A DNA stretch of 64,000 nt, taken from the NCBI GenBank assembly GCA_965221385.1, contig OZ244885.1, positions 2,177,334 through 2,241,333 of the forward strand, written 5' to 3'. The stretch is from Dehalococcoidia bacterium (GTDB lineage: Bacteria > Chloroflexota > Dehalococcoidia > Lucifugimonadales > UBA3495). The notes below the pieces were generated by a model. That model saw only the letters and a list, made by a program, of their open reading frames with translations, was not told the origin of the DNA and did not search any database. Shown in pieces: positions 4,007 through 62,695 of the stretch. A program made the position numbers and the translations under genes. Numbering within the stretch: position 1 is the stretch's first letter; the number at the start of each line of letters is the position of its first letter.

Positions 4007-4399
4007 ATGTGGAAGCTATTTTGCGCATTTGTGGCCGTATTGGTACCCCTGACGGTTGCATGTGGGTTCGGGGCCGAGGTTGCACCCACTCCAGCGCCTA
4101 ATGCCAGACCTGTTCACGTCTTGCACATTTGGGACGATTATCAACAGAATGAACCCAGGGCAAACAAAGAGTGGAAGAAAAGGTGGATATATCTGGAGAT
4201 GCCAGTGGATGTCGTGGAAAACGAAGGGGCGGTATTTTACCTAACCGGATATCCTTTTGCTTTGTCAGAAAGGGCTCTCATGAGATTTACAGACGAAGAG
4301 CGACTCATTGAAATAGAGCCTGGTCAACAGTTGTACGCTACCTGTCGACTTTCAGGTTTAATCCTCGGCTATTTGTTGAGCTTCCGTGATTGCCAATGA
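4007..4399 (+). CDS. putative lipoprotein (130 aa)
   Basis: AGGAGAGG lies 4 nt upstream of ATG 4007. Signal peptide with lipobox LTVA|C. GC is visibly lower than the flanks. The last codons lie inside a degenerate repeat unit. Confidence 0.55.
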   Translation: MWKLFCAFVAVLVPLTVACGFGAEVAPTPAPNARPVHVLHIWDDYQQNEPRANKEWKKRWIYLEMPVDVVENEGAVFYLTGYPFALSERALMRFTDEERLIEIEPGQQLYATCRLSGLILGYLLSFRDCQ

Positions 4400-5181
4400 T
4401 AGCCGAGGAACCCCAACGGTGCAGGGTAACCGCCATTCCCATGACCAGCCCCTCTTGTTTGTCATTCCGAGCGTCAGCCGAGGAATCCCAACGGTGCGGG
4501 GAGAACCAACCTTCCTACGCCCAATCCCCACAGCCAGTCATTCCGAGCGACAGCCGGGGAACCCCAACCGTGCGGGGAGAACCAACCTTCCTACTCCCAA
4601 TCCCCACAGCCAGTCATTCCGAGCGACAGCCGAGGAATCCCAACGGTGCGGGGAGAACCAACCTTCCTACTCCCAATCCCCACAGCCAGTCATTCCGAGC
4701 GACAGCCGAGGAATCCCAACGGTGCGGGGAGAACCAACCTTCATACCCCCAATCCCCACAGCCAGTCATTCCGAGCGACAGCCGAGGAATCCCAACGGTG
4801 CGGGGACAAGGAACCTTCCTACCCCCAATCCCCACAGCCAGTGATTCCGAGCGACAGCCGAGGAATCCCAACGGTGCGGGGACAAGGAACCTTCCTACCC
4901 CCAATCCCCACAGCCAGTGATTCCGAGCGACAGCCGGGGAACCCCAACGGTGCGGGGAGAACCAACCTTCCTACTCCCAATCCCCACAGCTTGTCATTCC
5001 GAGCGACAGCCGAGGAATCCCAACGGTGCGGGGAGAACCAACCTTCATACCCCCAATCCCCACAACCAGTCATTCCGAGCGTCAGCAGAGGAATCCCAAC
5101 CGTAGGGAGGGAACCGGGCTTCCTACCCCAGAACGCCGTGGCCCTCACCGTTGGGATTCCTCGGCTGTCGATCGGAATGAC
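4378..5181. repeat. Family-A array A1: degenerate leading unit, nine direct 76-bp units, one inverted terminal core
   Basis: GTCATTCCGA core starts at 4461, 4537, 4613, 4689, 4765, 4841, 4917, 4993 and 5069 (exact 76-bp spacing). The inverted core GTTGGGATTCCTCGGCTGTCGATCGGAATGAC is at 5149-5181. Confidence 0.95.
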
Positions 5182-5224
5182 ATCGCTGTCTTTTGCCAGA
5201 CCTGTTCTACGAGCAAACAAGAAT

Positions 5225-5247
5225 GGGACCGGCTACTTGCCGGTCCC
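5225..5247. terminator. GC-rich hairpin with T-rich flanks on both strands (likely bidirectional terminator; serves rplT on the minus strand)
   Basis: GGGACCGGC-TACTT-GCCGGTCCC. Followed by TTTACTTTGT on the plus strand and ATTCTTGTTTG on the minus strand. Sits 69 nt downstream of the rplT stop. Confidence 0.5.
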
Positions 5248-5315
5248 TTTACTTTGTCTGCCCAACTAACTCTCAGGACTGGGTGTTGGCCACCCTCTGA
5301 AACTGTTTGCTGGCC

Positions 5316-5678
5316 TCACGCGGCCGTTTTGGCCTCTTCGGCAATGCCCACCAGCTTCTCGAACCCGGACGGGTCGTTGACCGCCAGGTCGGCCAGCATC
5401 TTGCGGTCCACCTCGATGCCGGCCACTTTCAGGCCGTGCATGAATTGGCTGTAAGTGGTACCCGACTGGCGGCAGGCGGCGCCGATGCGCACAATCCAAA
5501 GGCGGCGAAAATCTCCCTTGCGCTCCCGCCGATGACGGTAGGAATAGCTCCAGGCGTGGAGGAGGGCCTCCTTGGCCCACTTGTAGTTGCGGCTGGAGGA
5601 ACCTTGGAACCCCCTGGCTGCCGACAATACCTTCTTGTGACGGTGGCGCTTGGTGACGCCGCGCTTTACTCTGGACAC
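5316..5678 (-). CDS. rplT: 50S ribosomal protein L20
   Basis: SRVKRGVTKRHRHKKVL..RLWIVRI is canonical L20. GTG start preceded by GGAG. Confidence 0.95.
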   Translation of the reverse strand: MSRVKRGVTKRHRHKKVLSAARGFQGSSSRNYKWAKEALLHAWSYSYRHRRERKGDFRRLWIVRIGAACRQSGTTYSQFMHGLKVAGIEVDRKMLADLAVNDPSGFEKLVGIAEEAKTAA

Positions 5679-5708
5679 CTTGAATCTCCGGGATAGCAGG
5701 ATGGGGGG

Positions 5709-5909
5709 CTAGACGTCGTAGGGGATCAGCTGGCTGAGCCTCTTGACGTCCGCCTGGTCAACGGACAACTTGGCGGCGTACTTGCGAGTAACCTTCTTGG
5801 GCTTCTTGCGGCGCAGGTGGCTGCTCATGCGCTTGCGCCGCAGCATCTTGCCCGAGCCGGTGATGTGGAAACGGGCCTTGGCGCCCTTGTGCGTCTTAAG
5901 TTTCGGCAT
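5709..5909 (-). CDS. rpmI: 50S ribosomal protein L35
   Basis: MPKLKTHKGAKARFHITGSGK is canonical L35. Lies in conserved infC-rpmI-rplT order. Confidence 0.95.
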   Translation of the reverse strand: MPKLKTHKGAKARFHITGSGKMLRRKRMSSHLRRKKPKKVTRKYAAKLSVDQADVKRLSQLIPYDV

Positions 5910-6459
5910 TGGCTAGGTCTTCCACTTTCTTGTCGGATTTTTCGCCCCTGGCGGGGTTGGGAATCAGTATCATGGATAGGGCGCGCCCTTCCATTGCCGG
6001 AGGTTTCTCCAGCCGAACCTCTTCCTTCAGGTCGTCGGCAACTTTCTTGAGCAGCGACAACCCCAATTGCTGGTGGACTGCTTCCCGTCCCCGGAAACGC
6101 ACGGTCAACTTGACCTTGGAGCCATCGTCGATGAACTCCTTCACCTTGCGAAGCTTGGCGTCCAGGTCGTGGTCGCCAATATTGGGACGAAAGCGGACCT
6201 CCCTCAGTTCGGTGTTCTTCTGAGCCTTCTTGGATTCTCGTTCCTTCTTCGAGTACAGGTAGCGCAGTTTTCCGTAATCCAGCAGGCGACAAACCGGGGG
6301 GTCTGCATTGGGAGCCACTTCCACCAGGTCAACCCCACCCTCGCGGGCCATCTGCAGGGCCCGGTCCAGTGGCAACAGGCCAATCTGCTCGCCATTGTCT
6401 CCGATGACGCGAACACGGGGCGACCGAATCTGCTCGTTTACTCTATACTGCCTCGCTAT
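5896..6459 (-). CDS. infC: translation initiation factor IF-3, probable ATA start
   Basis: VNEQIRSPRVRVIGDNGEQIG.. and DPPVCRLLDYGKLRY motifs. The track ORF (TTG at 6375) lacks the N-domain. The frame is open up to an in-frame TAG at 6466-6468. ATA at 6459-6457 lies 9 nt after GGAGG. Confidence 0.8.
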   Translation of the reverse strand: MARQYRVNEQIRSPRVRVIGDNGEQIGLLPLDRALQMAREGGVDLVEVAPNADPPVCRLLDYGKLRYLYSKKERESKKAQKNTELREVRFRPNIGDHDLDAKLRKVKEFIDDGSKVKLTVRFRGREAVHQQLGLSLLKKVADDLKEEVRLEKPPAMEGRALSMILIPNPARGEKSDKKVEDLANAET

Positions 6460-6517
6460 TCTCTCCTACCTCCGAAGAAATTGGGCTACTATGCCCTTGA
6501 CCAGGAAGGGTTCAATC

Positions 6518-6547
6518 AATGTAGCACAAGCCCCAAAGGGTAGTCAA
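6518..6547 (-). promoter_or_regulatory. candidate promoter for infC operon (TTGACT-N18-TACATT)
   Basis: Minus-strand hexamers sit at 6547-6542 and 6523-6518, about 55 nt upstream of the proposed infC start. Confidence 0.3.
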
Positions 6548-6715
6548 TGCGCAGGTGTCACACGCAACGGTTGAGAATTGGTGGAGACACCAGCGATCCC
6601 GGTATCCTCCGGTATTACTCCCGTTCCTCCCCCTTCCACCCCGTTCCGCCTGGGAAGAGTCTTCGGGCAGGGGAGGGCGGGTGCGCCCCTTTGCGGCGCC
6701 CGTCCTCACCCGGCA

Positions 6716-6743
6716 TTGACCCGGCCCGGTTTGCGGCTATAAT
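6716..6743 (+). promoter_or_regulatory. candidate sigma70-type promoter (TTGACC-N16-TATAAT) for the hotdog gene pair
   Basis: Hexamers read directly at 6716-6721 and 6738-6743. ATG 6781 follows, with AGGAGTAGGG as its RBS. Confidence 0.45.
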
Positions 6744-6780
6744 GACTGGCAGGCACAGCATGGAATTAGGAGTAGGGTCA

Positions 6781-7206
6781 ATGGCCGAGCAGCAGCTTAA
6801 GCCTTTCATTTACGATGAGGTAGAAATTGGCGAGGAGTTGGGCAGCTACGAATACGTGCTGACCCAGGAGATGTTGGACAACTTCCGGGCGTCGGTGCAG
6901 GACCAGGATGCCTGTTTCCCGACCCTGGCGGTGAAGCACGACGCCACCGCCCTGAACATGGTGTACGACGACCAGACCGGCGGGGTGAACGCGGGCAACG
7001 AGGTGGAGTTCTTCAATCCTCCCATCGTTGGCAAGAGGGTTTTCGTGACGGGCCGAATTCACGACAAGTACCTGCGGCGGGACAAGCCCTACCTGGTTAT
7101 CGAAGCCACCGCCGTGGATGAAGACGGGCGCATGCTGGAACGGCTGCGCACCTATCAGATGAAAAAACCTGACGAGGTGGGAAAGAAATGGCATCCCAAA
7201 TCTTAG
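6781..7206 (+). CDS. hotdog-fold protein, MaoC-dehydratase N-terminal-like (non-catalytic, HadA-like)
   Basis: Start moved to ATG 6781 (RBS AGGAG; upstream of it the ORF crosses the promoter). Hotdog-like sequence without the D-x2-N-x-H motif. Confidence 0.65.
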   Translation: MAEQQLKPFIYDEVEIGEELGSYEYVLTQEMLDNFRASVQDQDACFPTLAVKHDATALNMVYDDQTGGVNAGNEVEFFNPPIVGKRVFVTGRIHDKYLRRDKPYLVIEATAVDEDGRMLERLRTYQMKKPDEVGKKWHPKS

Positions 7207-7610
7207 ACAATGCGGCTATCCCCACGCTTACCAAGTCCGTTACCCAGGAGAGCATCGACCAGTTCGAATCCTGCGGCATCCTGGACCGGCAGAACATCCA
7301 TAACAACATGGAAGTCGCCACCCAGAGGCTGGGTACCACCTACACCCTGGCATCCGGGCGCATGTCCATAACCTTCGCTTCCGAGGCCCTGCGCCGGTTC
7401 TTTGGGTCGGAGGTGTTCAACCACACGGGCAGCGTCAACCTCAAGTTCCTGCGCCCGGTGAAGCACGGGGACACGGTGACAGTGTCCGGCTCGGTCATCC
7501 AGCAGGATGCGGTGGAGAACGGCACCCAGGTTACCGTTCAGATCCAGTGCCAGAACCAGAACGGGGACACCACGGCCGTGGGCCAGGGCTACGCCACCGT
7601 ACCCAACTAG
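7188..7610 (+). CDS. MaoC-like (R)-specific enoyl hydratase/dehydratase (HadB-like)
   Basis: Hydratase-2 motif D-R-Q-N-I-H-N-N-M-E-V-A. Overlaps the upstream hotdog gene by 19 nt. Confidence 0.7.
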   Translation: MASQILDNAAIPTLTKSVTQESIDQFESCGILDRQNIHNNMEVATQRLGTTYTLASGRMSITFASEALRRFFGSEVFNHTGSVNLKFLRPVKHGDTVTVSGSVIQQDAVENGTQVTVQIQCQNQNGDTTAVGQGYATVPN

Positions 7611-7755: not shown

Positions 7756-7764
7756 TGTTGATGG

Positions 7765-7894: not shown

Positions 7895-8593
7895 TCAGAA
7901 CTGACCTTCGGGTATCAATAGACCCGGTACCGCCGGAACTATCAACTCGGGGCCGTTGTTGGTTGCCTTGTTGACCAGGGACGATACCTGGTACACCTCC
8001 ATCTCCTCCTCCTGGAAGGGTACCAGCACGTCGGACAGGGCCGCGGGGTCGGTTACTTCGCCATCCAGCCAGAACTCCTCCAACTCCCGGGGCAGAATCA
8101 CCGGCATCCGGGGATGGACGGGTCGGAGCAGGTCGTTGGCCTCGGTGGTGATGATGGTGCAGGAACGAACCAGGTCTCCCTCCGGGTCCTTCCAGATCTC
8201 CCACAGCCCGGCAAAGGCGAAGGGCTGGCGGGAACGGAGGACGATGCGCATGGGGGTCTTGCCCTTGCCCACCTTCTGCCACTCGTAGAACCCGTCGGCC
8301 AATACCAGGCAGCGGCGCCGCTGCAGGGCGGTGCGGAAGCTGGGCTTCTGGGCCACCGTTTCGCTGCGCGCGTTGATCATGCGGTTGCCGATGGAGGCAT
8401 CCTTGGCCCAGGATGGGATGAGTCCCCACCGCATCAGCTGGGCCTGCCTGCCCTCCTCCCGGTTGGTGACGGTAAGGGCCTGCTGGGTGGGGGCGATATT
8501 GTACCGGGGCAGATTTTCAAAGCCGGTCCCGTCGAACTGGAACTGTCGGGCCAACTCCTGAATGTCGGCAATGAGGCTGTATCGTCCGCACAT
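7895..8593 (-). CDS. yedK: SOS response-associated peptidase (SRAP/YedK, abasic-site processing protein)
   Basis: N-terminal MCGRY (Cys2 nucleophile) and a 232-aa SRAP-like sequence (..RWGLIPSW..RMINARSET..). Confidence 0.85.
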   Translation of the reverse strand: MCGRYSLIADIQELARQFQFDGTGFENLPRYNIAPTQQALTVTNREEGRQAQLMRWGLIPSWAKDASIGNRMINARSETVAQKPSFRTALQRRRCLVLADGFYEWQKVGKGKTPMRIVLRSRQPFAFAGLWEIWKDPEGDLVRSCTIITTEANDLLRPVHPRMPVILPRELEEFWLDGEVTDPAALSDVLVPFQEEEMEVYQVSSLVNKATNNGPELIVPAVPGLLIPEGQF

Positions 8594-14420: not shown

Positions 14421-14449
14421 ATTATATGAACGTATGTTCTAAAAGTCAA
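14421..14449 (-). promoter_or_regulatory. sigma70-type promoter TTGACT-N17-TATAAT of imuB-dnaE2
   Basis: Minus-strand -35 at 14449-14444 and -10 at 14426-14421, with exactly 17 nt between. ATG 14376 lies about 45 nt downstream. Confidence 0.75.
14427..14440. promoter_or_regulatory. LexA (SOS/Cheo-type) box tGAACGTATGTTCt inside the promoter spacer
   Basis: Matches GAAC-N4-GTTC. 12 of 14 positions fit CGAACRNRYGTTYC, and only the two outermost bases differ. Confidence 0.75.
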
Positions 14450-14506
14450 CGTCCGGGCTTTTTCAGTAGGCCTTTTGAGGGCTGCCCTTTTTTCCTCAAA
14501 AGGCCT

Positions 14507-14626
14507 GTCATTCCGAGCGCCAAAGGCGTCGAGGAATCCCAACGGTATGGAGAAGGAGGTTTCTTATGGGAATGGTCTTGCCCACTGCGGTTGGGATTCC
14601 TCGACGCCTTTGGCGCTCGGAATGAC
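14507..14626. repeat. Family-A locus A2: single element with perfect 37-bp inverted arms and a 46-nt loop
   Basis: GTCATTCCGAGCGCCAAAGGCGTCGAGGAATCCCAAC at 14507-14543 and its exact reverse complement at 14590-14626. Confidence 0.95.
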
Positions 14627-14790
14627 AGTGACTGGGGGGAATGCGCCCGGAATGGCCCCGGGACAGGCATCAACGGGGAGAGGCATCGCCGGGGAAAGGG
14701 GAAGGCCCACCTGCAAGGCTTCAACAGCAGGTGGGCCGACTTTATGACCGTCCGTAAGACGGGCTGGACCGGAAGACGGGCGGTTGGTGG

Positions 14791-15500: not shown

Positions 15501-15540
15501 GTCGGCGTAGGGGCGCACGGCCGTGCGCCCCTACGCCGAC
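15501..15540. repeat. Family-B palindrome (perfect 40-nt)
   Basis: GTCGGCGTAGGGGCGCACGG|CCGTGCGCCCCTACGCCGAC. Lies 43 nt past the ornithine cyclodeaminase stop. Confidence 0.9.
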
Positions 15541-15582: not shown

Positions 15583-16536
15583 CTAGAAGGGGAGTTCCTG
15601 GCCGATGCCCTGGTCCCGGGCCTTGCGGTACACCAGCTGGGCGGCGGCGATGTCTTCCAGGGCCACCCCCATGGACTCGAACAGGGTTACCGCCTGGTCG
15701 TCTGGACGACCCTTCACCCGTCCTGCCAGGATGTCCTGCAGTTCGCAGACCATGTCCCAGCGAAACTCGCCCCTCGCTTCCGGCCAGAGCAGGTCGCCGC
15801 ACTCTACCTTGGCCTGGTCCAGGTCATCCACGGCGATTACTGCCGAGCGCAACACCGTCGCCTCGTCCACCTCCCGGCGCATCCAGTGGTTGCCGCCGGC
15901 GGCGTTGACGTGGGTTCCCGGCGCCAGCCATTCCCCCTCCAGCACCGGGTCCCGCGCGGAGGTGATGGTGATGGCAACGGCCACATCGGAAACGCACTCC
16001 TGGGCGCTGTCCACCGGGGTAATTTCGATGTTGAGCTGCTCGCTCATCCGCTGGGCGAAAGACTCTCGCCGTTCCTGGCGGCGGCTGTAAACCTTGGCGC
16101 GCTTGATGTCCCGGACGGCGCAGACAGCTTCCAATTGGGTGCGGGCCTGAAAGCCGGAGCCGATGACGCCCACGCTGTCGGCGTCGGCCCGGGCCATGTA
16201 CCGGGATGCCAGCCCCGAGGCGGCGCCGGTGCGGATCTGCCCCAGCCGGCCGCCCTCCATGCAGGAGAGCAACTCGCCCGTTTCGTAGTCGTAGAGCATC
16301 ACGATCATCTTCGCGCCGCCGGCGAAGGAGGGGTAGGCCTTGTAGCCAAACACCTGGTGTCCAGCATCGGCGGCGGCCATGAAGTGGAAGAAGCCGCCGG
16401 GCATTCGGATGCGGGAACGGGGCTTGATATCCACCTGGCCGGCCCCGGCGTGGGCAAAGGCCTCGTCCAGCGCCTCCACGCATTCCGACATGGGCAGCAG
16501 CTGCACCACCTCTTGTTCGTTCAAATAGAGAGCCAT
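15583..16536 (-). CDS. ornithine cyclodeaminase / mu-crystallin family protein
   Basis: Full-length family-like sequence (..GRLGQIRTGAASGLASRYMA..GSGFQA..). Start moved to ATG 16536 (GGAGGA RBS). Confidence 0.85.
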   Translation of the reverse strand: MALYLNEQEVVQLLPMSECVEALDEAFAHAGAGQVDIKPRSRIRMPGGFFHFMAAADAGHQVFGYKAYPSFAGGAKMIVMLYDYETGELLSCMEGGRLGQIRTGAASGLASRYMARADADSVGVIGSGFQARTQLEAVCAVRDIKRAKVYSRRQERRESFAQRMSEQLNIEITPVDSAQECVSDVAVAITITSARDPVLEGEWLAPGTHVNAAGGNHWMRREVDEATVLRSAVIAVDDLDQAKVECGDLLWPEARGEFRWDMVCELQDILAGRVKGRPDDQAVTLFESMGVALEDIAAAQLVYRKARDQGIGQELPF

Positions 16537-16783
16537 ATATTCCTCCAGAGTCTCAGTCCTGTACGTCGGACTTGGCAACGGGGGTTAGTATAGCATCGGC
16601 AGGGGTGGGAAGGGATGGCCGGAGTGTCCTGCGCCACCACCCAACCTCTCCCATTTGTGGAAACCCCCGGAAAACGGGGGAAACAACGTAGAAAACATAG
16701 ATTCCCTTTGTTAATATCTGCTGAAGACAGTCGGTAATGGTCTTGCCGGTCTTTGACGGATTCAAATCAATCACAGAACAAAG

Positions 16784-17788
16784 GTGGCCATTGTGAGCAG
16801 CAGGCCCCGCGTTTTCGTTACCCGCCGCATCATGCAGGATGCCCTGGACCTGATCGACCGCAGCGCAGACATGGAGGTCTGGCCCGACGAGGAGCCTCCC
16901 TCGCCTCAGGTCCTGCGGGAAAGGGCCGCCGGCGTGGACGGCATTCTGACCAACATCATGGACCGGGTGGATGCCCCCCTTCTGGACGCGGCCCCGGGTT
17001 TGAGGGTGATTAGCCAGTTGGCGGTGGGGCTGGACAACGTGGACGTGGCGGAGGCCACCCGGCGGGGCATTCCCGTGGGGTACACGCCGGGGGTATTGGC
17101 GAAGGCTACCGCCGACGTGGGTTTCGCCCTGCTGATGTCCGCGGCCCGGCGCATTGGAGAGAGCGACCGGTGGGTGCGGGACGGCCAGTGGACCCTGGCC
17201 TTCCATCCCCTGCGCTGGTTGGGCGTGGACATTCACGACAAGACCCTGGGCATCATCGGGCTGGGCCAGATTGGGCTGGAGATGGCCCGCCGGGGCCGGG
17301 GCTTCGACATGAGAATCCTCTACCACTCCCGCACTCGGCGCCCCGACCTGGAAGGGGAATACGGCTTGGAATACGTGGACCTGTCCACGCTGCTTTCGGA
17401 ATCGGACTTTGTTTCCCTGCACGTTCCGCTGACGCCGGAAACCCGGCACTACATCGGTGAGGCGGAATTGCGGCAGATGAAGTCCACGGCCATACTGGTC
17501 AACGTGGCCCGGGGGCCGGTGGTGGATTCCAGAGCCCTCTACCGGGCCTTGAAAGAGGGGTGGATTTACGGGGCCGGGTTGGACGTGACCGATCCGGAAC
17601 CCATACCCGCCGATGATCCGTTGCTGACCCTGGATAACGTGGTGATTTCGCCCCACGTGGGCAGCGCTTCCCTGGCCTCGCGGGGGGCCATGTGCATGCT
17701 GGCGGCCCGCAACCTGCTGTCGGGACTGGCTGGCCGGCCAATGGAGAGCTGCGCCAACCCGGAGGCGCTAAGCCGGAGTGGCTCCTAG
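16784..17788 (+). CDS. D-2-hydroxyacid dehydrogenase (glyoxylate/hydroxypyruvate reductase-like)
   Basis: GIIGLGQIGLEMARR NAD-binding motif and ..ARG..VD..AL..HV.. catalytic region. GTG start at 16784 or 16793. Confidence 0.85.
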   Translation: MAIVSSRPRVFVTRRIMQDALDLIDRSADMEVWPDEEPPSPQVLRERAAGVDGILTNIMDRVDAPLLDAAPGLRVISQLAVGLDNVDVAEATRRGIPVGYTPGVLAKATADVGFALLMSAARRIGESDRWVRDGQWTLAFHPLRWLGVDIHDKTLGIIGLGQIGLEMARRGRGFDMRILYHSRTRRPDLEGEYGLEYVDLSTLLSESDFVSLHVPLTPETRHYIGEAELRQMKSTAILVNVARGPVVDSRALYRALKEGWIYGAGLDVTDPEPIPADDPLLTLDNVVISPHVGSASLASRGAMCMLAARNLLSGLAGRPMESCANPEALSRSGS

Positions 17789-17828
17789 CAGTCAGTCAAG
17801 TTTGGTTTGATAGGGTAATTGAAGTTTT

Positions 17829-17929
17829 GTCATTCCGAGCGCCAGTCGAGGAATCCCAACGGAGCGGGGGAACCGGTATCGCGATGCCAACGCCCCTTGT
17901 TTGTCATTCCTCGGCAGGCTCGAAATGGC
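17829..17929. repeat. Family-A locus A3: one forward core plus one divergent reverse core
   Basis: GTCATTCCGAGCGCCAGTCGAGGAATCCCAAC at 17829-17860. ATTCCTCGGCAGGCTCGAAATGGC at 17903-17929. Confidence 0.8.
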
Positions 17930-17990
17930 AGGCGTGAGTTGCCAATGTGCCATCGGTATTCATGAGTATTGAACCCAGGGGGAACCGGAA

Positions 17991-18596
17991 ATGACCAAGC
18001 GAAACATGTTCATCTCCGCCGCGATCGTCATACTGATCCCGGTGGCGGCGGCGGCCTGGTGGATGTTGTCTCCATTGTTCATCAGCACCACGGTGGACGA
18101 GGAGTTCCCCATGGCGGCGAGCGCCGATGTGCCATCCAACCTCACCATGTCCCAGGTGGAGACCGTGATGACGGTGATGGCCCAGATGGACCAACCCACC
18201 ATGGAAGAGGCCATGCCGTCGGAAGGGGACGGAGACGCTGGCCCCGTGGTGGTGGCGTCGGGTTCCTTCCGGGGCGCCGACTCCTTCCACCAGGGCAGCG
18301 GGACGGCCACCATCTACCGGATTGCAGACGGCAGTCACATCCTGCGGTTCGAGGACTTCATGGTTACCAACGGGCCCGATCTGCGGGTGTTGCTGGCCAA
18401 GCCTCGGGACCCGCAGAGCCGCAACGAGTTGCAGGACGGGGGATACATTAACTTGGCCAAGCTTAAGGGGAATATCGGCAACCAGAACTACGAGATTCCG
18501 GCGGACATCGACCTTGCTGAGCAGGGCAGCATAGTCATCTACTGCATGCCCTTCCACGTTATCTTCAGCGTGGCCTCCCTGGACTCTGCGGGATAG
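17991..18596 (+). CDS. DM13 domain-containing protein with N-terminal membrane anchor
   Basis: GSFRGADSFHQGSGTATIY..LRFEDFMVTNGPDLRVLL matches the DM13 pattern. One N-terminal TM helix. Confidence 0.7.
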   Translation: MTKRNMFISAAIVILIPVAAAAWWMLSPLFISTTVDEEFPMAASADVPSNLTMSQVETVMTVMAQMDQPTMEEAMPSEGDGDAGPVVVASGSFRGADSFHQGSGTATIYRIADGSHILRFEDFMVTNGPDLRVLLAKPRDPQSRNELQDGGYINLAKLKGNIGNQNYEIPADIDLAEQGSIVIYCMPFHVIFSVASLDSAG

Positions 18597-18660
18597 CCCT
18601 ATTCAACAGAGAGTTGTCAGGGATGAGAGGACTGGGAATAGGGGGCAAGGGCGACGTGAC

Positions 18661-18692
18661 CCGTAGGGGCGCACAGCCGTGCGCCCCTACGG
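18661..18692. repeat. Family-B palindrome
   Basis: CCGTAGGGGCGCAC-AGCC-GTGCGCCCCTACGG. Lies 65 nt past the DM13 gene stop. Confidence 0.9.
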
Positions 18693-18734
18693 TGCATTTG
18701 GCTGTGTGTTTGGTATTAGCAGCCCCCCTTGTTT

Positions 18735-19662
18735 GTCATTCCGAGCGCCAGCCGAGGAATCCCAACCCACCGGGGCAGCTACGCCACCCACCACAAACCA
18801 ACCACCCCTGTCATTCCGAGCGCCGCAGGCGTCGAGGAATCCCAACCGTCCGGGTAAACCATCCATCCCACCACAAACCAATCACCCCTGTCATTCCGAG
18901 CGCCAGTCGAGGAATCCCGACGGTGCGGGGGGAACCGTGATTGCCATGGGCAGGCCTTCTTGTCTGTCGCTCGCATGACAGGCAAGGTTGGCTTGGAGTG
19001 GGATGGATGGTTTACCCGGACGGTTGGGATTCCTCGACGCCTGCGGCACTCGGAATGACAATCAGAGGGGCTGGGCGCTGGAGAGCATCGTTGTTCCCCA
19101 GGGTTGGGATTCCTCGACGCCTGCGGCGCTCGGAATGACAATCAGAGGGGCTGGGCGCTGGAGAGCATCGTTGTTCCCCACCGTTGGGATTCCTCGACGC
19201 CTGCGGCGCTCGGAATGACAATCAGAGGGGCTGGGCGCTGGAGAGCATCGTTGTTCCCCACCGTTGGGATTCCTCGACGCCTGCGGCGCTCGGAATGACA
19301 ATCAGAGGGGCTGGGCGCTGGAGAGCATCGTTGTTCCCCACCGTTAGGATTCCTCGACGCCTGCGGCGCTCGGAATGACAATCAGAGGGGCTGGGCGCTG
19401 GAGAGCATCGTTGTTCCCCACGGTTGGGATTCCTCGACGCCTGCGGCGCTCGGAATGACAATCCGAGGGGCTGGGCGCTGGAGAGCATCGTTGTTCCCCA
19501 CGGTTGGGATTCCTCGACGCCTGCGGCGCTCGGAATGACAATCCGAGGGGCTGGGCGCTGGAGAGCATCGTTGTTCCCCACGGTTGGGATTCCTCGGCGC
19601 CTGCGGCGCTCGGAATGACAATCAGAGGGGCTGGGGTTCCGCGGCCGTCGCTCGGAATGTCA
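18735..19662. repeat. Family-A array A4: three forward units, then eight reverse 80-bp units plus partial copies
   Basis: Forward cores at 18735, 18810 and 18890. Reverse cores (GTTGGGATTCCTCGACGCCTGCGGCGCTCGGAATGAC) at 19023, 19103, 19183, 19263, 19343, 19423, 19503 and 19583. Confidence 0.95.
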
Positions 19663-25569: not shown

Positions 25570-25597
25570 GTAGGGGCGCACAGCCGTGCGCCCCTAC
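25570..25597. repeat. Family-B palindrome
   Basis: GTAGGGGCGCAC-AGCC-GTGCGCCCCTAC. Confidence 0.9.
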
Positions 25598-25926: not shown

Positions 25927-26298
25927 TCAACGGCGTTTCCACTGGTCAACCAGGTACTGGCCCTGGTCCTCGTCCAGCCCCCAGAGTTGGAAATGGACCC
26001 GGATGTCGTCGTACACGCTGACGTTGCCAGCGTCGGCAATAGCGGCCCGGTCGGGGTCCCGGTAGGCCTCGACACTGACATCCATCCAGTTTAGGGGTAT
26101 TTCCTCTCCGGTGGCGATGCGCTCCACCATGTTGACGGCGCAGGCGGTAATGCCGGAAAGAAACAGTTCCCCGGCGCCCACCTCTTCGCCGCCCGAACCG
26201 TCGGCAACCCAGTGGTGATTGCGGGTGTTGCAGATGGCGCGCCCCGGAGTGCCGGTGCTGTAGCTCCTTACCCGATAAGCCAAGGTTAGTTCCGCCAT
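25927..26298 (-). CDS. OsmC/Ohr family peroxiredoxin-like protein
   Basis: Start moved to ATG 26298 (GGAGG RBS). ..GAGELFLSGITACAVNM.. is typical of OsmC. Upstream of this, the track ORF runs through a repeat. Confidence 0.7.
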   Translation of the reverse strand: MAELTLAYRVRSYSTGTPGRAICNTRNHHWVADGSGGEEVGAGELFLSGITACAVNMVERIATGEEIPLNWMDVSVEAYRDPDRAAIADAGNVSVYDDIRVHFQLWGLDEDQGQYLVDQWKRR

Positions 26299-26424
26299 GT
26301 TCCGAACCTCCTGTTTGGCCTGGTTTCTCCAAGGGATGGCTAATATTAGCGACAACCCGACCCTGGGCGCAACCTCGGCGAAGCGGAAGCGACAGTTCAG
26401 GGCAAGGTCAAAGCCGGCAATGCT

Positions 26425-26535
26425 GTCATTCGGAGCGATTGTGCTTGTCATTCCGAGCGACAGTCGAGGAATCCCAACGGTGCTGGGAACCATGCCACCC
26501 ACCCCAAACCAACCAAGCCTGTCGCTCGGAATGAC
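26425..26535. repeat. Family-A locus A5: partial forward, full forward and partial reverse cores
   Basis: GTCATTCGGAGCG at 26425. GTCATTCCGAGCGACAGTCGAGGAATCCCAAC at 26447-26478. CCTGTCGCTCGGAATGAC at 26518-26535. Confidence 0.9.
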
Positions 26536-26689
26536 AAAAAAGGGGGTCTGGGCATTGAAATGTCGGCTTCCCTCCAATGCGCGCGGTTGCTGCCGAAGGC
26601 GCTGCCCCGCCCGGTCGTTCCCCTGTGTTATATTTACCAATCAATGCCTCTTGAACTGATTGCCCCAATCCCCTAGCGGAGGAGATGAA

Positions 26690-42690: not shown

Positions 42691-42799
42691 GGGCGGGTAT
42701 TCAGTTAACCCCGGTACGTCATTGGCCGGTCAACCCGATCGCCCCTTCCTTGTAATTCCGTGCGCCCCTCTTTCTGCCATCCCGCAGCTCCTCTTGTTT

Positions 42800-43297
42800 G
42801 TCATTCCGAGCGACAGCCGAGGAATCCCAACGGCGCCCACCCAACCAACCTTGCCATCCCGCAGCCCCCCAGGACTGTCATTCCGAGCGACAGCCGAGGA
42901 ATCCCAACGGCGCCCACCCAACCAACCTTGCCATCCCGCAGCCCCCCAGGACTGTCATTCCGAGCGACAGCCGAGGAATCCCAACGGCGCCCACCCAACC
43001 AACCTTGCCATCCCGCAGCCCCCCAGGACTGTCATTCCGAGCGACAGCCGAGGAATCCCAACGGTGCGGGGGGAACGGAGTCGCGGAGCAGGAAGCCCGC
43101 TTGCCTCCCTACCGTTGGGATTCCTCGGCTGTCGCTCGGAATGACAGGCGCGGTTGGTTGGTGGTGGGTGGAGTGATAGCCCCCGTACGGTTTGGGATTC
43201 CTCGAAGGGCTTGGAATGACAGGCGCGGTTGGTTGGTGGTGGGTGGAGTGATAGCCCCCGCACGGATGGGGATTCCTTGGCTGTCGCTCGGAATGAC
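42800..43297. repeat. Family-A array A6: four forward 77-bp units, then three reverse 75-77-bp units
   Basis: Forward cores at 42800, 42877, 42954 and 43031. Reverse cores end at 43145, 43220 and 43297. Confidence 0.95.
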
Positions 43298-43368
43298 AGG
43301 CTTGGGGGGATGCGGCACGAAGCATGACTGAGGGGTGTGGTTGCGTGGCCCTTAGGCGGGCGTTGTCC

Positions 43369-43396
43369 GTAGGGGCGCACGACTTTGCGCCCCTAC
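43369..43396. repeat. Family-B palindrome (variant loop)
   Basis: GTAGGGGCGCA-CGACTT-TGCGCCCCTAC. Lies 50 nt past the DinB-family gene stop. Confidence 0.85.
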
Positions 43397-43445
43397 CCCA
43401 CCAGGCAGCCATACATCCCGTCTGTTCCTGAGAGAGGTCGTGGTA

Positions 43446-49282: not shown

Positions 49283-49428
49283 GTCATTCCGAGCGCCAAA
49301 GGCGTCGAGGAATCCCAACGGTGCGGGGAAGTCATCATGCCTATGCCCAGCCCCCCAAGTCTGTCATTCCGAGCGACAGCCGAGGAATCCCAACGGTGTG
49401 GGGGTCGAGGCGTTAGGTTGGGAATGAC
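49283..49428. repeat. Family-A locus A7: two forward units (80-bp spacing) plus a partial reverse core
   Basis: Cores at 49283 (identical over 40 nt to the A2 arm) and 49363. GTTAGGTTGGGAATGAC at 49412-49428. Confidence 0.9.
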
Positions 49429-51401: not shown

Positions 51402-51431
51402 GTTAGGAATCCTCGGCAAGCACGGAATGAT
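51402..51431. repeat. Family-A solitary reverse-type core (degenerate)
   Basis: GTTAGGAATCCTCGGCAAGCACGGAATGAT. Confidence 0.6.
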
Positions 51432-53384: not shown

Positions 53385-53849
53385 CCTGTCGCTCGGAGTG
53401 ACAGACAAGAGGGGCAGCATAACTATTACGTCGAGAAAGGAACCGTAGGGGCGCACAGCCGTTCGCCCCTACCCCCATTAACCATTTTTCCCTCCACAGA
53501 CCCCCCTTCCTGCTCATTCCGAGCGACAGACTAGGAATCCCAACCGCACCCTTCAACCACGCCACCTACCCAAAACCATCCATGACTGTCATTCCGAGCG
53601 GCAGCCGAGGAATCCAAACCGCGCCCTTCAGCCATGCCACCTACCCAAAACCATCCATGCCTGTTATTCCGAGCAGCAGCGGAGGAATCCCAACCGTGGG
53701 GATCAAACCGGGCTTTCTACCCTGAAACGCCTTGGCCCCGCACGGTTGGGATTCCTCGACTTTCGCTCGGAATGACAAACGGGGGGCTGGGCATAACAAT
53801 GATGGTTCCATCCCCACGGTTGGGATTCCTCGACTGTCGCTCGGAATGA
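53385..53849. repeat. Family-A array A9: reverse half-core, embedded Family-B palindrome, three forward and two reverse units (74-75 bp spacing)
   Basis: Forward cores at 53513, 53588 and 53662. Reverse cores at 53744-53775 and 53818-53849. Confidence 0.9.
53445..53472. repeat. Family-B palindrome (one arm mismatch)
   Basis: GTAGGGGCGCAC-AGCC-GTTCGCCCCTAC. Lies 99 nt past the GH15 stop. Confidence 0.85.
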
Positions 53850-53911
53850 CAAGGACGGCGGCGGGAATGACCACCGTCCCCCTACCCGGTTACACCTTGC
53901 TTGCCTGAACC

Positions 53912-59379: not shown

Positions 59380-59482
59380 CCCTTGCCATTTCCCTAAAGC
59401 AGACTGGGCCGGGACATGCGTCCCGGCCCTTCAATTACCCCAATCGGCGCAGTTCAACTGCCCTTCTTATCCCCCGGGATGT

Positions 59483-60331
59483 TCAATACCCCCGGAAACT
59501 CTCGGTGAATAGCAGAGCCTTTTCCAGTGGCCCGTCGATCTCAAGCTTCACCGGAACCGAGCCGGAGCTGATGTCCAGCCGGCCGAATATCAGCAGCACG
59601 TAGGCGCTGGCGTTGGACCGGAAGGTAACGTCGGGAGCAACCTCACCGGCCGGTTCGATTCGGTACGAATTCCCTTCCAGAACCACGTCCTCGCTCATGC
59701 TGAACTCATCGCTCACCGCAAACCGGAAGCGGGCATTGGCCCCGCCCTCCAGGGGTACGAAGCAGGCATTCAGCCATCGGTGGGCGACGTTGATAATCAA
59801 CTCGGCGGCGCCACTGGTCATTTCCGCCGCCGGATCGAAGGCGGAGCGCATGTCCCAGCCGTGGATGGCGATTTCCTGGATCCGGCGCGTCACGTTTTCA
59901 TGGACGGGGATTACGCCACGACGGTGGAAGGAGGGTTTCTCCCAATCTTCCGGTGTGAGTCGGCCGGTGGCGGCCATAAGGTCTTCCAGCCCCTCCCGAA
60001 AGGCTGCCAGCAATTCCGGGCCTCCCTGACCACCCCGGAAAGAAATGGCCCTGTCCGCCGTTGATTCCGAAGCCCGCTCCCCGGGATCCAGGAACCGGGC
60101 CCCCTCAGGCGGGTCGCTGATTCCCTGCTGGGCTCGGGCCAGGGCGGTACCCGTTCCGCTTCCGCCCTGGGCCAGATGAGCCACCACGTCACCCACCTTC
60201 CAGGCGGTGCAGGCGCTGTCCCGCTCCCACGCTTCCGCTGACAGGCCGGACAGGAACTCAATCAACCGGTCCGCCTCTGCCTTAAGGGTTGCAATAACCT
60301 TTTCCATATCTGGGGCTTTGCTGGAAACCAT
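59483..60331 (-). CDS. maleylpyruvate isomerase-family (MDMPI/DinB-like N-domain) protein
   Basis: ..W.VGDVVAHLAQG.. is the N-terminal metal-binding pattern of MDMPI_N. AGGAGG RBS. Confidence 0.65.
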   Translation of the reverse strand: MVSSKAPDMEKVIATLKAEADRLIEFLSGLSAEAWERDSACTAWKVGDVVAHLAQGGSGTGTALARAQQGISDPPEGARFLDPGERASESTADRAISFRGGQGGPELLAAFREGLEDLMAATGRLTPEDWEKPSFHRRGVIPVHENVTRRIQEIAIHGWDMRSAFDPAAEMTSGAAELIINVAHRWLNACFVPLEGGANARFRFAVSDEFSMSEDVVLEGNSYRIEPAGEVAPDVTFRSNASAYVLLIFGRLDISSGSVPVKLEIDGPLEKALLFTESFRGY

Positions 60332-60396
60332 GGTTCCTCCTTGTTTTCTCCGTAGGTGCGCAAAGAGTACGACATCTTGCGCGAAGGCTGCCGCCC

Positions 60397-61365
60397 TCAG
60401 TTTCTCGTTGCGGCGCGGTACAGGCTACCGTCCACCGTGGTAACGTACAGGTCCCTGCCGTCGTTGCCACCAAAAGCGCAGTTGGTTGGCGTCTCCGGCA
60501 AGTGGTGGGAGGACAGTATCCTCCCTTCCGGAGTCATGACCCAGGCCATTGGCCCCGGGCCGGCGTTCTCCCCACCGCCCACTGCCACCAGGTTGCCCTC
60601 CTCGTCCAGGCAGATGCCATAGATGCCCCGGTGCACGCCATCCCGACCCCGTCCGCCGTCCTCGCCCAGGGTGTGCAACAGTCGGTAGGGTCCCACCGCG
60701 CCTGACTCCAGAATGGGGTAGGCGCGCAACTCTCGGGTACCGCCGGGTTCCTCGCTGGTTTCGGCCACGTACAGAGTGGTCTCATCGGGGGACAGGGCAA
60801 GGGCCATGGGCGCGTCGGTGTCGTGGGTAATTCGGGTAATGGGCGCATCCAGGGTGGGAGCCTCCAGCCGCAGCACGGAAGCATGGTCCAGCTTGTCGTG
60901 AATCTGGGGATTCATCGCCTGCCGCAGGTCACCGTGAGGGTCGCAGAACCAGATGCGATCCCGGCTGTCCACCACCAGATCTCTCGGCTGGTTGTGGTAG
61001 ATGCCGCCCAGCTTGTGGGCCAGGGGCGACGTGGTACCATTGGCATTGAACCGCACCAGCCGTCGTCCCGCGCTCTGGGCCCCGTAAAGTTCGCCGGAGC
61101 GAGATAAGGCCAGGCCGCAGGTTCGGTTGGTCCAACGGCGAAAATCGTTCGTCTCTCCGGTAGCGGGATTGAAGCGCAGGATTCGGTTGTTTGCGGCGTT
61201 AAAGGGAAAGGTCAGTTGAGTAAAGAGCAACGCCTGGCCATCCCATACCGGGCCATCGGTGGGGCTGCCATAGGGTCCCGCGACGCGTTGAAAATCCCAG
61301 GGCAAGACATCATCCCTTGTCAGCTTGATTGGTGGGATTTTAGGAGGGGGCAGGTGTAGTGTCAA
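60397..61365 (-). CDS. SMP-30/gluconolactonase/LRE-like beta-propeller protein (start uncertain)
   Basis: ..NCAFGGNDGRDLYVTT.. and ..LYVAETS.. motifs. TTG 61365 lacks a clear RBS. Confidence 0.7.
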   Translation of the reverse strand: MTLHLPPPKIPPIKLTRDDVLPWDFQRVAGPYGSPTDGPVWDGQALLFTQLTFPFNAANNRILRFNPATGETNDFRRWTNRTCGLALSRSGELYGAQSAGRRLVRFNANGTTSPLAHKLGGIYHNQPRDLVVDSRDRIWFCDPHGDLRQAMNPQIHDKLDHASVLRLEAPTLDAPITRITHDTDAPMALALSPDETTLYVAETSEEPGGTRELRAYPILESGAVGPYRLLHTLGEDGGRGRDGVHRGIYGICLDEEGNLVAVGGGENAGPGPMAWVMTPEGRILSSHHLPETPTNCAFGGNDGRDLYVTTVDGSLYRAATRN

Positions 61366-61541
61366 GGCAAAGCAAAGAAGGCTGTCGGGCCCCTAACTTG
61401 TGAGGGAGCCGGCGGGGATAATAGGCGCTGGTTTGCCAGGGGGTATTGGGTTGGACTTTCGGTTGCCAATTCCACCCGCCAATGCTAATCTGCCCCAAGA
61501 ATCAGGATGTAAGATTCCGAGATACGAGGTAGGTGAAAGGT

Positions 61542-62501
61542 ATGGCAGAGCAACGAATTGGCGTCGCGGCCATGGGCGGCGACGTCCGCGCCGTGGTGGC
61601 CCGTATCCAGGATTTGGAGGAGCGGGGGATACAGGCGGCGTGGTTGACCTCCGGCGGCGCCGGTCCCGATGCCTTGACCACTTTCGCCGCTGCCGCGGCC
61701 ACCACCGACCGCATCCTGCTGGGAACCAGCATCATTCCCACCTACCCCCGACATCCTATAGTGTCGGTGGCCCAGACCCAAGTGGTGGCCCAGCTGGCCC
61801 CCGGTCGCTTCCGGTTGGGACTGGGGCCGAGCCACAAAGTTAGCATCGAGCCCATGTTCGGCATCGAGCATCACGCTCCCTTGACCAACCTGCGGGAGTA
61901 CATCCAGGTGGTGAAGGCCCTGTTGTGGGAGGGCCAGGTGGACTACGACGGAACTCAATACCAGGGCCACGCCTCCCTGCCCGGCCCCACATCTCCCGAT
62001 GTGCCGGTGATGGCATCGGCCCTGCGCCGCCGGTCTTTCCGGCTGTGCGGCGAGGTGGCCGACGGGGCCATCAGCTGGGTCTGCCCCGGCCAATACCTCA
62101 GGGACGTGGCCCTGCCGGAGATGCAGCGGGGGGCCGCAAGGGCCGGCCGGGAAACGCCGCCCCTGATTGCCCACGCCCCGGTCTGCGTCCATGACAAGCC
62201 CGAAGAGGTTCGGGAAGCTGCCCGCGCCCAGTTGGCCAACTACCCGCGCTCTCCCTTCTACCAGGAGATGTTCGCCGCCTCAGGGCATCCGGAAGCCAGG
62301 GATGGCAACTGGAGCGACGGTATGATCGAGGATGTGGTTCTGATGGGGGACGAGGAGACGGTGGCTGGACGCCTGCGGGAACTGTTCAGTTGGGGAGCCA
62401 CGGAAATTCTGGCCCACCCGTTGACGGCCGGGAGCGACGCCCAGGCGTCCACGGAACGGAACCTGAACCTGATAGCCACCGTAAGCCAGGGGTTGGGGTA
62501 G
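61542..62501 (+). CDS. luciferase-like monooxygenase (LLM) class flavin/F420-dependent oxidoreductase
   Basis: ..FRLGLGPSH.. LLM pattern and TIM-barrel length. GTG 61533 is an alternative start. Confidence 0.7.
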   Translation: MAEQRIGVAAMGGDVRAVVARIQDLEERGIQAAWLTSGGAGPDALTTFAAAAATTDRILLGTSIIPTYPRHPIVSVAQTQVVAQLAPGRFRLGLGPSHKVSIEPMFGIEHHAPLTNLREYIQVVKALLWEGQVDYDGTQYQGHASLPGPTSPDVPVMASALRRRSFRLCGEVADGAISWVCPGQYLRDVALPEMQRGAARAGRETPPLIAHAPVCVHDKPEEVREAARAQLANYPRSPFYQEMFAASGHPEARDGNWSDGMIEDVVLMGDEETVAGRLRELFSWGATEILAHPLTAGSDAQASTERNLNLIATVSQGLG

Positions 62502-62592
62502 AACGTCTGCGGAGGAACTCTGCCTGCACGGGCGGGGTATCCTAGCTAAGCAGCCTGTTAGCGCGGGCGAGTTTCCGGTTTTCAAAGGACCA

Positions 62593-62695
62593 GTTGTTCC
62601 GAGCGGAGTCGAGGACTCCCTACCGCAGGGGTTAAGGTGTTTCCTAAGGGAGTATTCCTGACCCCCTGCCGCCGCGATTCCTCGGCAGTCGGCGG
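62593..62695. repeat. Family-A degenerate forward plus reverse cores
   Basis: GTTGTTCCGAGCGGAGTCGAGGACTCCCTAC at 62593-62623. CGATTCCTCGGCAGTCGGCGG at 62675-62695. Confidence 0.5.

Follow-up and report, generated by a model that had tools for sequence, protein, structure and literature searches.

Repeat loci and their genomic context

The 64,000-nt stretch analysed here (contig OZ244885.1 of a Dehalococcoidia bacterium, positions 2,177,334 to 2,241,333; G+C content 62.6%), hereafter called the window, is a housekeeping neighbourhood that contains pheT, moeA, rplT-rpmI-infC, an imuB-dnaE2 cassette, cysS, ispDF, nadBC, dtd, ABC transporters and others, and its intergenic gaps carry a family of short palindromic repeats that is amplified at several loci into tandem arrays. 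These repeats are a previously undescribed family resembling repetitive extragenic palindromes (REPs), and belong to an already known bacterial repeat kind (REP, bacterial interspersed mosaic element [BIME], neisserial intergenic mosaic element [NIME]) rather than to a new kind of system. Gene context was combined from crude GC3-based gene calls, Pfam scans and the gene calls of contigs from a second assembly.

A combined fuzzy search of the window recovered 39 full cores of the form GTCATTCCGAGCG-N3-9-CGAGGAATCCCAAC (30-37 nt) at ten loci, where about 0.1 would be expected by chance. Taken separately, the 5′ half-core GTCATTCCGAGCG gave 41 matches with at most one mismatch (0.09 expected) and the 3′ half-core CGAGGAATCCCAAC gave 37 (0.05 expected). 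Tandem Repeats Finder delineated six arrays with periods of 75, 76, 77 or 80 bp, up to 8.8 copies and 81-98% matches (92-98% in the long arrays). An earlier note on this DNA, made from the sequence alone, had described a ten-locus intergenic core family with 75-80 bp tandem arrays covering about 3.3 kb or 5% of the window, and this description was borne out, the loci totalling 3306 bp (5.2%). Since the unit periods vary in this way, no single reading frame runs through the arrays, as had also been remarked. One element needed correction: 51402-51431, taken for a lone half, is a degenerate reverse core of nearly full length. The first array likewise begins with a degenerate core, at 4386-4417.

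Tandem arrays (Tandem Repeats Finder)
4461-5129: 76 bp, 8.8 copies
18734-18918: 80 bp, 2.4 copies
19020-19635: 80 bp, 7.7 copies
42775-43064: 77 bp, 3.8 copies
43134-43301: 75 bp, 2.2 copies
53514-53696: 75 bp, 2.4 copies

Repeat elements (strand in brackets; a dot where no single strand applies)
4386-4460 (+): degenerate forward core (4386-4417) and a-type tail heading the first array, by sequence view; tail 70-74% identical to tails of other loci
4461-5100 (+): forward arm with nine cores of 32 nt; each 76-bp unit is made up of a core and a 44-nt tail
5101-5181 (.): 49-nt conserved centre (5101-5149) and reverse core (5150-5181), forming a head-to-head dimer with core 5069-5100; 35-nt inverted repeat, 89%
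14505-14628 (.): solitary head-to-head dimer, 37-nt cores, 46-nt centre, 39-nt arms 100% complementary; between the imuB-like gene and an upstream 190-aa gene
17829-17929 (.): head-to-head dimer of forward 32-nt core, a-type tail and degenerate reverse core; missing from the short orthologous spacer of relatives (L141-L143 alignment)
18735-18964 (+): forward arm, three units (32-, 37- and 32-nt cores; C-rich b-type tails) and centre
18965-19661 (-): reverse arm with inner half-core, one b-type unit, seven near-identical 80-bp units (37-nt cores) and outer half-core
26425-26535 (.): forward half-core, forward core, b-type tail, reverse half-core; divergent gap upstream of OsmC-like and FAA hydrolase genes
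42800-43062 (+): forward arm with four cores of 32 nt; units of 77 bp, of which three are complete and identical
43063-43297 (-): centre (43063-43113) and reverse arm, three cores in 75-bp units; a sub-threshold microRNA (miRNA) model match spans the long hairpin
49283-49428 (.): two forward units (37-nt, then 32-nt core), then an internally deleted reverse core
51402-51431 (-): degenerate reverse core, near full length
53385-53402 (-): truncated reverse core, 40 nt past the GH15 stop codon
53513-53850 (.): forward arm (three 75-bp units), conserved centre (53695-53744), reverse arm (two units)
62593-62695 (.): diverged head-to-head dimer of forward-like core, centre and reverse-like remnant; co-directional gap

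Two contigs of a second metagenome assembly (ERZ26695579; L001 and L136) match the window at 99.98% identity. Three arrays (42800-43297, 49283-49428 and 53385-53850) are present on L136 entirely and with unchanged layout, and L001 is colinear with the 19020-19635 array for about 7.5 units before the contig ends inside the array. The arrays are therefore not the product of one assembly, three loci being kept whole together with some 7.5 units of a fourth.

All four big arrays lie between convergent gene 3′ ends, as had been claimed (unknown gene/rplT, DM13/FAD oxidase, dtd/DinB and GH15/AMP-binding), five smaller loci occupy co-directional gaps and one (26425-26535) a divergent gap. Elements were present in 4 of 8 convergent gaps versus 6 of 44 other gaps (Fisher p = 0.035), which supports an enrichment of the family in convergent gaps within this small sample. 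The preference first proposed thus holds as an enrichment but not as a rule, given the divergent location of 26425-26535 and the co-directional one of 62593-62695. Pfam scans and gene calls revealed no transposase, integrase or Cas domain among the called genes of the window, in agreement with the earlier statement that no transposase is present in the 64 kb.

The repeat family accounts for 5% of the window, for several gene calls that run too far and for the likely break points of short-read assemblies. Gene callers extended open reading frames (ORFs) through the repeats at 25927-26640 (minus strand) and across 4386-5269 and 42722-43412. The OsmC-like gene is called at 237 aa in the window, where it covers the locus at 26425-26535, and at 123 aa in relatives.

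Structure of the core

The 32-nt core reads T-GTC-ATTCC-GA-GCGACAGC-C-GA-GGAAT-CCCAAC. GTC is invariant in the consensus, and the base before it is T in 30, A in 8 and G in 1 of the 39 cores. The tag is followed by the stem ATTCC/GGAAT, a CGAG/CGAG tandem G.A, an inner stem-loop and a CCCA tail. In the predicted folds ATTCC pairs with GGAAT, as had been proposed, and a small inner stem-loop is closed. In the 37-nt form the inner helix is longer, an extra helix of 4-5 bp being capped by a 3-nt loop; for the 32-nt form a drawing with a bulged C and a GACA loop of 4 nt is possible. The facing CGAG tetranucleotides give a tandem G.A/A.G between C-G pairs in the stem, and the apex is GCGNNAGC in the window core and GCGNAGC, with a 3-nt GNA loop, in commoner 25-nt relatives.

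Work by Hirao on mini-hairpins reportedly dealt with the unusual stability of a DNA mini-hairpin motif. Both the GCGNAGC-type mini-hairpin (PMC13037366) and the CGAG-type tandem sheared G.A (PMC10085684) are described as unusually stable DNA structures. Nearest-neighbour folding with RNA and DNA parameters on both strands gave weak energies, with z-scores of -0.9 to -1.7 for the window cores and, under DNA parameters, +0.2 for the 25-nt consensus form; no strand asymmetry in folding energy was seen under DNA parameters. As standard nearest-neighbour models do not capture the G.A and mini-hairpin motifs, folding energy was excluded as support, and the case for the hairpin is based instead on covariation (below) and on the literature concerning these special motifs. 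Because the stable motifs are DNA-specific, we infer that the hairpin acts as single-stranded DNA. The combination of tandem G.A and mini-hairpin loop thereby offers a concrete structural hypothesis, that of a single-stranded DNA hairpin.

Covariation was assessed by scanning viral contigs with the pattern GTCATNNNGANCG..CGANNNATC, which fixes GTCAT, GA, CG, CGA and ATC while leaving both stem triplets free; the figures apply to the matches listed, from 120 viral contigs (L016-L135). Among these 139 matches the two triplets were fully complementary in 62, versus 1/64 expected (p = 7e-73), and the complementary matches form one family, GTCAT-YCY-GAGCG-NAG(Y)-CGA-RGR-ATC. Its stems include TCT/AGA, CCT/AGG, TCC/GGA, CCC/GGG, GCT/AGC, GTC/GAC and GTT/AAC, and the inner pair covaries as well (GAGCG..CGA versus GAACG..TGA) with the tandem GA kept. 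The hairpin is thus under structural selection, and the window core is a member of the GTCAT-N3-GAGCG-NAG-CGA-N3-ATC hairpin family, which is widespread and shows compensatory changes in its stem. In this wider family, conservation beyond the hairpin is limited to the T before GTC (50 of 60) and a C-T after AT. According to crude ORF calls on the viral contigs, the hairpin is mostly intergenic and shows no orientation bias relative to flanking genes (14 antisense versus 9 sense in co-directional gaps). Several co-oriented copies per viral contig, in short intergenic spacers, were often seen, with more than 60 structured copies among the matches listed.

The exact window-type core is rare, with 14 loci in 185,579 species-representative genomes and 4 in JGI metagenomes, at one or two copies each. 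The named genomes are mostly Chloroflexota metagenome-assembled genomes, including Ardenticatenaceae, Anaerolineae, Dehalococcoidia and Oscillochloris. Full-text literature searches with the GTCAT-YCY-GAGCG-NAG-CGA-RGR-ATC sequence, the window core and related sequences gave nothing relevant. On one low-G+C metagenome contig (L138, Ga0268276_1045207, 400-830) the core occurs twice, 183 bp apart, embedded in an apparent proline/threonine-rich repetitive coding region (…VIPSGSEESQP…), which may represent intragenic REP insertion of the sort reported for other REP families.

Head-to-head dimers and growth of the arrays

At every locus with both orientations, the full forward cores lie to the left of the full reverse cores, and all six such loci of the window have their tags pointing outward. 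The loci are consequently large imperfect palindromes, with for instance 86-nt arms of 91% complementarity within 18809-19060 and 39-nt arms of 100% complementarity at 14505-14628. Order and palindromic form are as the earlier note had reported wherever both orientations are present, but they are nothing peculiar to the arrays. In three big loci the innermost cores, one forward and one reverse, enclose a centre of 49-51 nt that is 73-76% identical between loci in either orientation (5101-5149 is 76% identical to the centre at 53695-53744 and 73% identical to that at 43063-43113, the latter as reverse complement). This shared centre shows that the dispersed founder was a head-to-head dimer of about 115-120 bp. 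With a tag-outward founder, duplication of either arm permits no order other than forward left and reverse right, so that the polarity follows from the dimer with each arm duplicated. Single-copy dimers with outward tags were also seen at 9 of 22 other loci inspected, eight of them among the 18 core-pattern loci and the ninth in a relative's syntenic locus (L143). These dimer loci are mostly from Chloroflexota; 15-70 nt to the right of the first hairpin comes its inverted partner, which is of like type but has another stem.

Units within an array are 92-100% identical, differing at 0-9 positions, and the three complete units in 42800-43030 are identical. In the 80-bp array adjacent units form blocks with common variants. 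A difference matrix of the 76-bp array showed that the non-adjacent units 4689 and 4993 differ at one site and that the adjacent units 4765 and 4841 are near-identical; in the same array the GGGGAACCCC variant is found at 4537 and again at 4917, as expected from multi-unit, in-register duplication. The arrays thus arose locally, and the amplification in situ that had been proposed is confirmed by this identity and by variants common to neighbouring units or recurring in register. The pattern of variant sharing points to misaligned recombination or slippage between direct cores as the probable route.

The tails had been described as locus-specific and C-rich. In fact module types recur between loci at 73-80% identity, versus 48 ± 10% for shuffles: two tails, the a-type (…ATGCCCAGCCCCCCTTGTTT) and the C-rich b-type (…GCCACCCACCACAAACCAACC…CCT), are each present at several loci, with 70-80% identity overall. 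The C-richness applies to some tails, namely the b-type (C 47-53%, G 7-18% on the tag strand), but not to those of the eight-unit array at 19023-19619 (C 31-37%); for the tails of this largest reverse array the composition is C 37% and G 28%. Each locus is thus a mosaic drawn from a small set of modules (the core, the centre and two types of tail), and the sharing of tail and centre modules between several loci indicates that units larger than the core were dispersed.

Comparison with relatives

The FAD oxidase gene adjoining the largest array has orthologues of 89, 87 and 83% identity on megabase contigs of three relatives (ERZ18545484 ptg001023l, ERZ25084387 ctg36556c and ERZ25069191 ctg586883). 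No core, tandem array or GTAG palindrome (a second repeat, see below) was found in the syntenic stretches of the three relatives L141, L142 and L143; these correspond to 10.5-30 kb of the window, which holds four of its loci, for L141 and L142, and to the only alignable part, about 15.6-21.1 kb, for L143. For example, the spacer between the 2-hydroxyacid dehydrogenase and DM13 genes measures about 35-70 bp in the relatives, depending on the end setting, versus about 200 bp with a dimer in the window. That copies are missing from the compared stretches argues for a burst that is recent and specific to the lineage, and against a regulatory device under conservation; the family therefore expanded recently in the window lineage and is dispensable to the relatives. 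A burst in one genome that is unseen in the compared stretches of near relatives also means that subtraction of gene contents could nominate the mobilising enzyme.

Comparison with known repeat systems

The CGTC-tagged REP superfamily was surveyed by Di Nocera, De Gregorio and Rocco (2013; PMC3733652). According to that survey, members have an unpaired CGTC tag, often TGTC and also CCTC, stems that nearly always start with A/T and a short CCA tail; the selection called for an 8-9 bp stem, with at most one mismatch accepted, and a loop of 4-5 nt. Head-to-head dimers, often heterodimers, predominate there and head-to-tail arrangements are negligible, convergent and unidirectional gaps are preferred, no transposase is linked, and clusters are said to be "reiterated in tandem along with flanking DNA" (PMC3733652). 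The survey places the Neisseria dRS3 repeat (ATTCCC-N8-GGGAAT) in CGTC-1.

Set against that description, the window family shares the unpaired [C/T]GTC tag, the A-T/T-A stem start and a CCA-like 3′ tail (CCCAAC after GGAAT in the window family, CT(C) in the wider family). It also shares the tag-outward dimers, often heterodimers, the location in convergent and unidirectional intergenic gaps, the tandem-reiterated clusters and, within the 64-kb window, the lack of a linked transposase. It differs in the conserved tandem G.A at stem positions 6-7, which amounts to two non-Watson-Crick positions, so that the window core would fail the survey's one-mismatch filter. It further differs in a Chloroflexota-like host, a phylum not listed for CGTC repeats, and in the dominance of head-to-tail arrays, and it may differ in the loop, which belongs to the GCGNAGC/GCGNNAGC type or is lengthened to 14 nt. 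The earlier conclusion that simple REP elements cannot explain these loci is not upheld: the core shows tag, AT-first stem and CCA-like tail together with the habit of forming head-to-head dimers, and both tandem clusters and NIMEs have been published (PMC3733652; PMC1797815). We claim no membership of a named family, and regard the window family as working like, and probably related to, the CGTC/TGTC REP class. We know of no mobilising enzyme for CGTC/TGTC-type REPs.

Neisseria NIME arrays combine dRS3 with 50-150-bp spacers (RS elements, more than 100 families) in a mosaic (Bentley et al. 2007; PMC1797815). The ATTCC…GGAAT arms of the window core are near those of dRS3, and both systems consist of long intergenic arrays, dynamic in length, in which hairpins are separated by short non-coding spacers. 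The window core is, however, 32-37 nt long and not 20 bp, with 22-27 nt between the ATTCC and GGAAT arms, and its spacers are 40-45 nt, of few types and near-identical within each array instead of a mosaic of more than 100 families. Moreover, no filamentous prophage or IS110-type recombinase was seen in the window, and the window arrays are missing from close relatives whereas NIMEs are syntenic across species.

With the E. coli REP/BIME and Pseudomonas REPIN-RAYT systems the window family has in common 5′-tagged imperfect palindromes, inverted dimers able to form long hairpins, mosaic clusters of a few extra-palindromic modules and a lineage-specific copy number. The core tag is TGTC and not GTAG, though, no gene for a RAYT (Y1 HUH transposase) is present in the 64 kb, and the arms of the window arrays are all direct whereas BIME REPs alternate in orientation. 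The Neisseria Correia, enterobacterial ERIC and pneumococcal BOX elements (the latter with variable boxB) are similar in their size of about 100-150 bp, terminal inverted repeats and tandem-variable internal module; they differ in that the window elements have no visible target-site duplication and that the terminal repeat is a covarying hairpin also found alone. Membership of REPIN-RAYT, BIME, NIME or DDE-type miniature inverted-repeat transposable elements (MITEs) thus fails in each case on at least one defining feature.

Origin of the arrays and alternative explanations

The reading that we favour, and consider probable, is that the repeats are REP-type stem-loops that were dispersed recently as a head-to-head dimer and expanded by local duplication of units. 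The basic dispersed element would be the dimer of about 115-120 bp, made up of a tag-outward core, a 46-51-nt centre and an inverted core, and it would have entered some ten intergenic sites of the window lineage in recent times, presumably through an enzyme that is encoded outside the window and acts on the hairpin in single-stranded DNA form. Once cores stood in direct orientation, misaligned recombination or replication slippage between these 32-37-bp sequences could duplicate units of core plus tail, and such duplication on each arm of the dimer would yield direct arrays with forward units on the left and reverse units on the right automatically. The largest arrays may persist between convergent genes because insertion and expansion there disturb no promoter; any effects on transcript 3′ ends, supercoiling or recombination would be secondary.

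Several points weigh against this reading. No mobilising enzyme was identified in the 64 kb examined of a genome of about 2.9 Mb, and the boundaries of the empty sites are not definable by alignment, the intergenic DNA of the relatives being too diverged. The computed fold energies are weak, the z-scores modest and the strands alike under DNA parameters. The core fails the stem filter of at most one mismatch, so that membership of CGTC-1 to CGTC-4 is not established, and most window cores stand head-to-tail, an arrangement given in the survey as negligible in CGTC families. The enrichment in convergent gaps, finally, is based on a small sample (p = 0.035).

The strongest of the alternatives, and one that we still hold to be unlikely, is that the repeats are functional RNA or terminator devices, that is 3′-end stabilisers or Rho-loading (rut-like) sites, with each locus acting as a bidirectional terminator or insulator. 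The 75-80 nt period is near the length of RNA engaged by the Rho hexamer. In all four big arrays the gene-proximal arm is sense to its gene, but this orientation is automatic because the founder is palindromic. The low-G, C-rich b-type tails would suit Rho, whereas the tails of the largest reverse array are not C-rich. Published REPs lie mostly downstream of genes and are transcribed, according to the survey (PMC3733652); against a terminator role stand the lack of orientation preference in the wider family, the location of one locus in a divergent promoter gap and the lack of the elements in the relatives' compared syntenic stretches. In addition, a canonical bidirectional terminator-like hairpin (5225-5247) already lies between rplT and its array, and no Rfam family was matched. 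RNA-level or chromosomal functions are possible as secondary effects.

Unlikely too, and ranked after a terminator role, is a bolder proposal in which GTCAT-N3-GA-GCGNAGC-GA-N3-ATC defines a very widespread, as yet unnamed superfamily of REPs whose copying takes place on single-stranded DNA. The window genome, with a fresh burst that relatives at 83-89% identity lack, would then still carry the active enzyme, the direct arrays being the footprint of this copying and not of ordinary slippage. The stem-loop in question unites two hyperstable, DNA-specific motifs, tandem sheared G.A in a Y-GA-R context and the GCGNAGC mini-hairpin.

An improbable alternative is that the loci are protein-binding DNA arrays with a chromosomal function, either NIME-like recombinase targets or gyrase sites like those of BIME-2. 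E. coli BIME-2 arrays bind gyrase where positive supercoils build up between convergent genes, and all big arrays of the window are in convergent gaps. For NIME arrays the proposal is that a site-specific recombinase acts on them and thereby favours exchange of the genes next to them; the repeated hairpin with a 40-45-nt spacer is like dRS3 plus RS (PMC1797815). A three-gene block beside the largest array is moreover inverted relative to three relatives, with repeats at both breakpoints. Nevertheless, no recombinase or phage integrase is nearby, the spacers within each array are near-identical and not a many-family mosaic, and close relatives do without the arrays.

More improbable again is a MITE of the classical sort, derived by deletion from an insertion sequence with a DDE transposase; the cores would be its terminal inverted repeats of 32-39 bp, and a full-length copy elsewhere would mobilise it in trans. 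Elements of about 115-120 bp with perfect or near-perfect terminal inverted repeats that are intergenic, recent and missing from relatives would agree with this, as would a window without transposase, which is what a non-autonomous element predicts. No direct target-site duplication, however, flanks 14505-14628, 17829-17929 or 26425-26535. Furthermore, compensatory changes mark each arm as a hairpin in its own right and partners within dimers of other genomes differ in the stem, neither of which transposase-binding terminal repeats need, and single cores stand alone in many genomes and viral contigs. Of the MITE-like element expanding by slippage that the earlier note had suggested, the non-autonomous character, the amplification in situ and the window free of transposase therefore stand, and the classical type with terminal inverted repeats and a DDE enzyme is unlikely because of the compensatory hairpin in each arm and the lack of a visible target-site duplication.

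A CRISPR-like array (to which the 32-37-nt repeat and 40-45-nt spacer sizes correspond), a coding repeat (through which gene callers do run ORFs), a type III toxin-antitoxin RNA array or an assembly artefact can practically be dismissed, since spacers within arrays are 92-100% identical and Cas domains are lacking, periods of 76, 77 and 80 bp break any frame, no toxN-like genes were found and the second assembly has the same layout over three whole loci and about 7.5 units of a fourth; the family is accordingly interspersed, non-coding and not CRISPR, as had been stated, with near-identical spacers, no cas genes and frame-breaking periods.

Second palindrome family and covariance-model matches

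A GTAG-tagged, perfect 28-nt palindrome with a 12-bp stem, GTAGGGGCGCAC-N4-GTGCGCCCCTAC, is present in the window in five copies versus 0.01 expected, three of them between a gene end and a big array.

GTAG palindromes
15507-15534
18663-18690
25570-25597
43369-43396
53445-53472

This palindrome has the look of a classical GTAG REP, so that a RAYT may be encoded in another part of the genome.

Comparison with L141, L142 and L143 shows that the block at 15583-18612 (ornithine cyclodeaminase, 2-hydroxyacid dehydrogenase and DM13 genes) has an inverted orientation with respect to its flanks. The GTAG palindrome at 15507 lies at one breakpoint, and that at 18663 together with the largest array at the other, so that the block may have arisen by repeat-mediated inversion. 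An isochorismatase gene is present in two relatives and missing from the window.

Rfam gave no match in the window at gathering thresholds. Below these thresholds, the only matches were those of plant or animal miRNA hairpin models to the long palindromes; MIR9672 (58 bits, E = 6e-9, versus a gathering score of 74) matched on both strands.

miRNA-precursor model matches below gathering (MIR9672, MIR7533)
43025-43151
53639-53870

Such matches reflect a generic long-hairpin effect, and a miRNA identity was rejected; they serve as a warning that miRNA models are able to pick up bacterial palindromes.

Observations on neighbouring genes

The gap that separates the rplT stop codon from the first array's right end holds a GC-rich hairpin of 9 bp (5225-5247), flanked on either side by T-rich runs; by its sequence features it resembles a bidirectional intrinsic terminator. 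At the left end of the same array a putative 147-aa ORF (3956-4399) with a signal-peptide-like N-terminus has no Pfam match, and its codon-position G+C bias is weaker than that of neighbouring genes; the ORF runs with its final codons into the degenerate first core. The 618-aa GH15 ORF of the window is split by a frameshift in the low-coverage assembly. In one relative, two contigs from the same sample (L143, 6656-7702, and L144) differ by an insertion sequence with a DDE_5/DDE_Tnp_1 transposase, adjoining the isocitrate/isopropylmalate dehydrogenase gene, and this difference is an insertion polymorphism within that population. Lastly, the solitary dimer at 14505-14628 adjoins GAACGTATGTTC (about 14428-14439), a GAAC-N4-GTTC palindrome of LexA-box (Cheo box) type about 50 nt upstream of the imuB-like/dnaE2 pair, which was seen by eye and is unmatched by a strict LexA-box pattern; a gene for an SOS-response-associated peptidase is located nearby, at 7895-8593.

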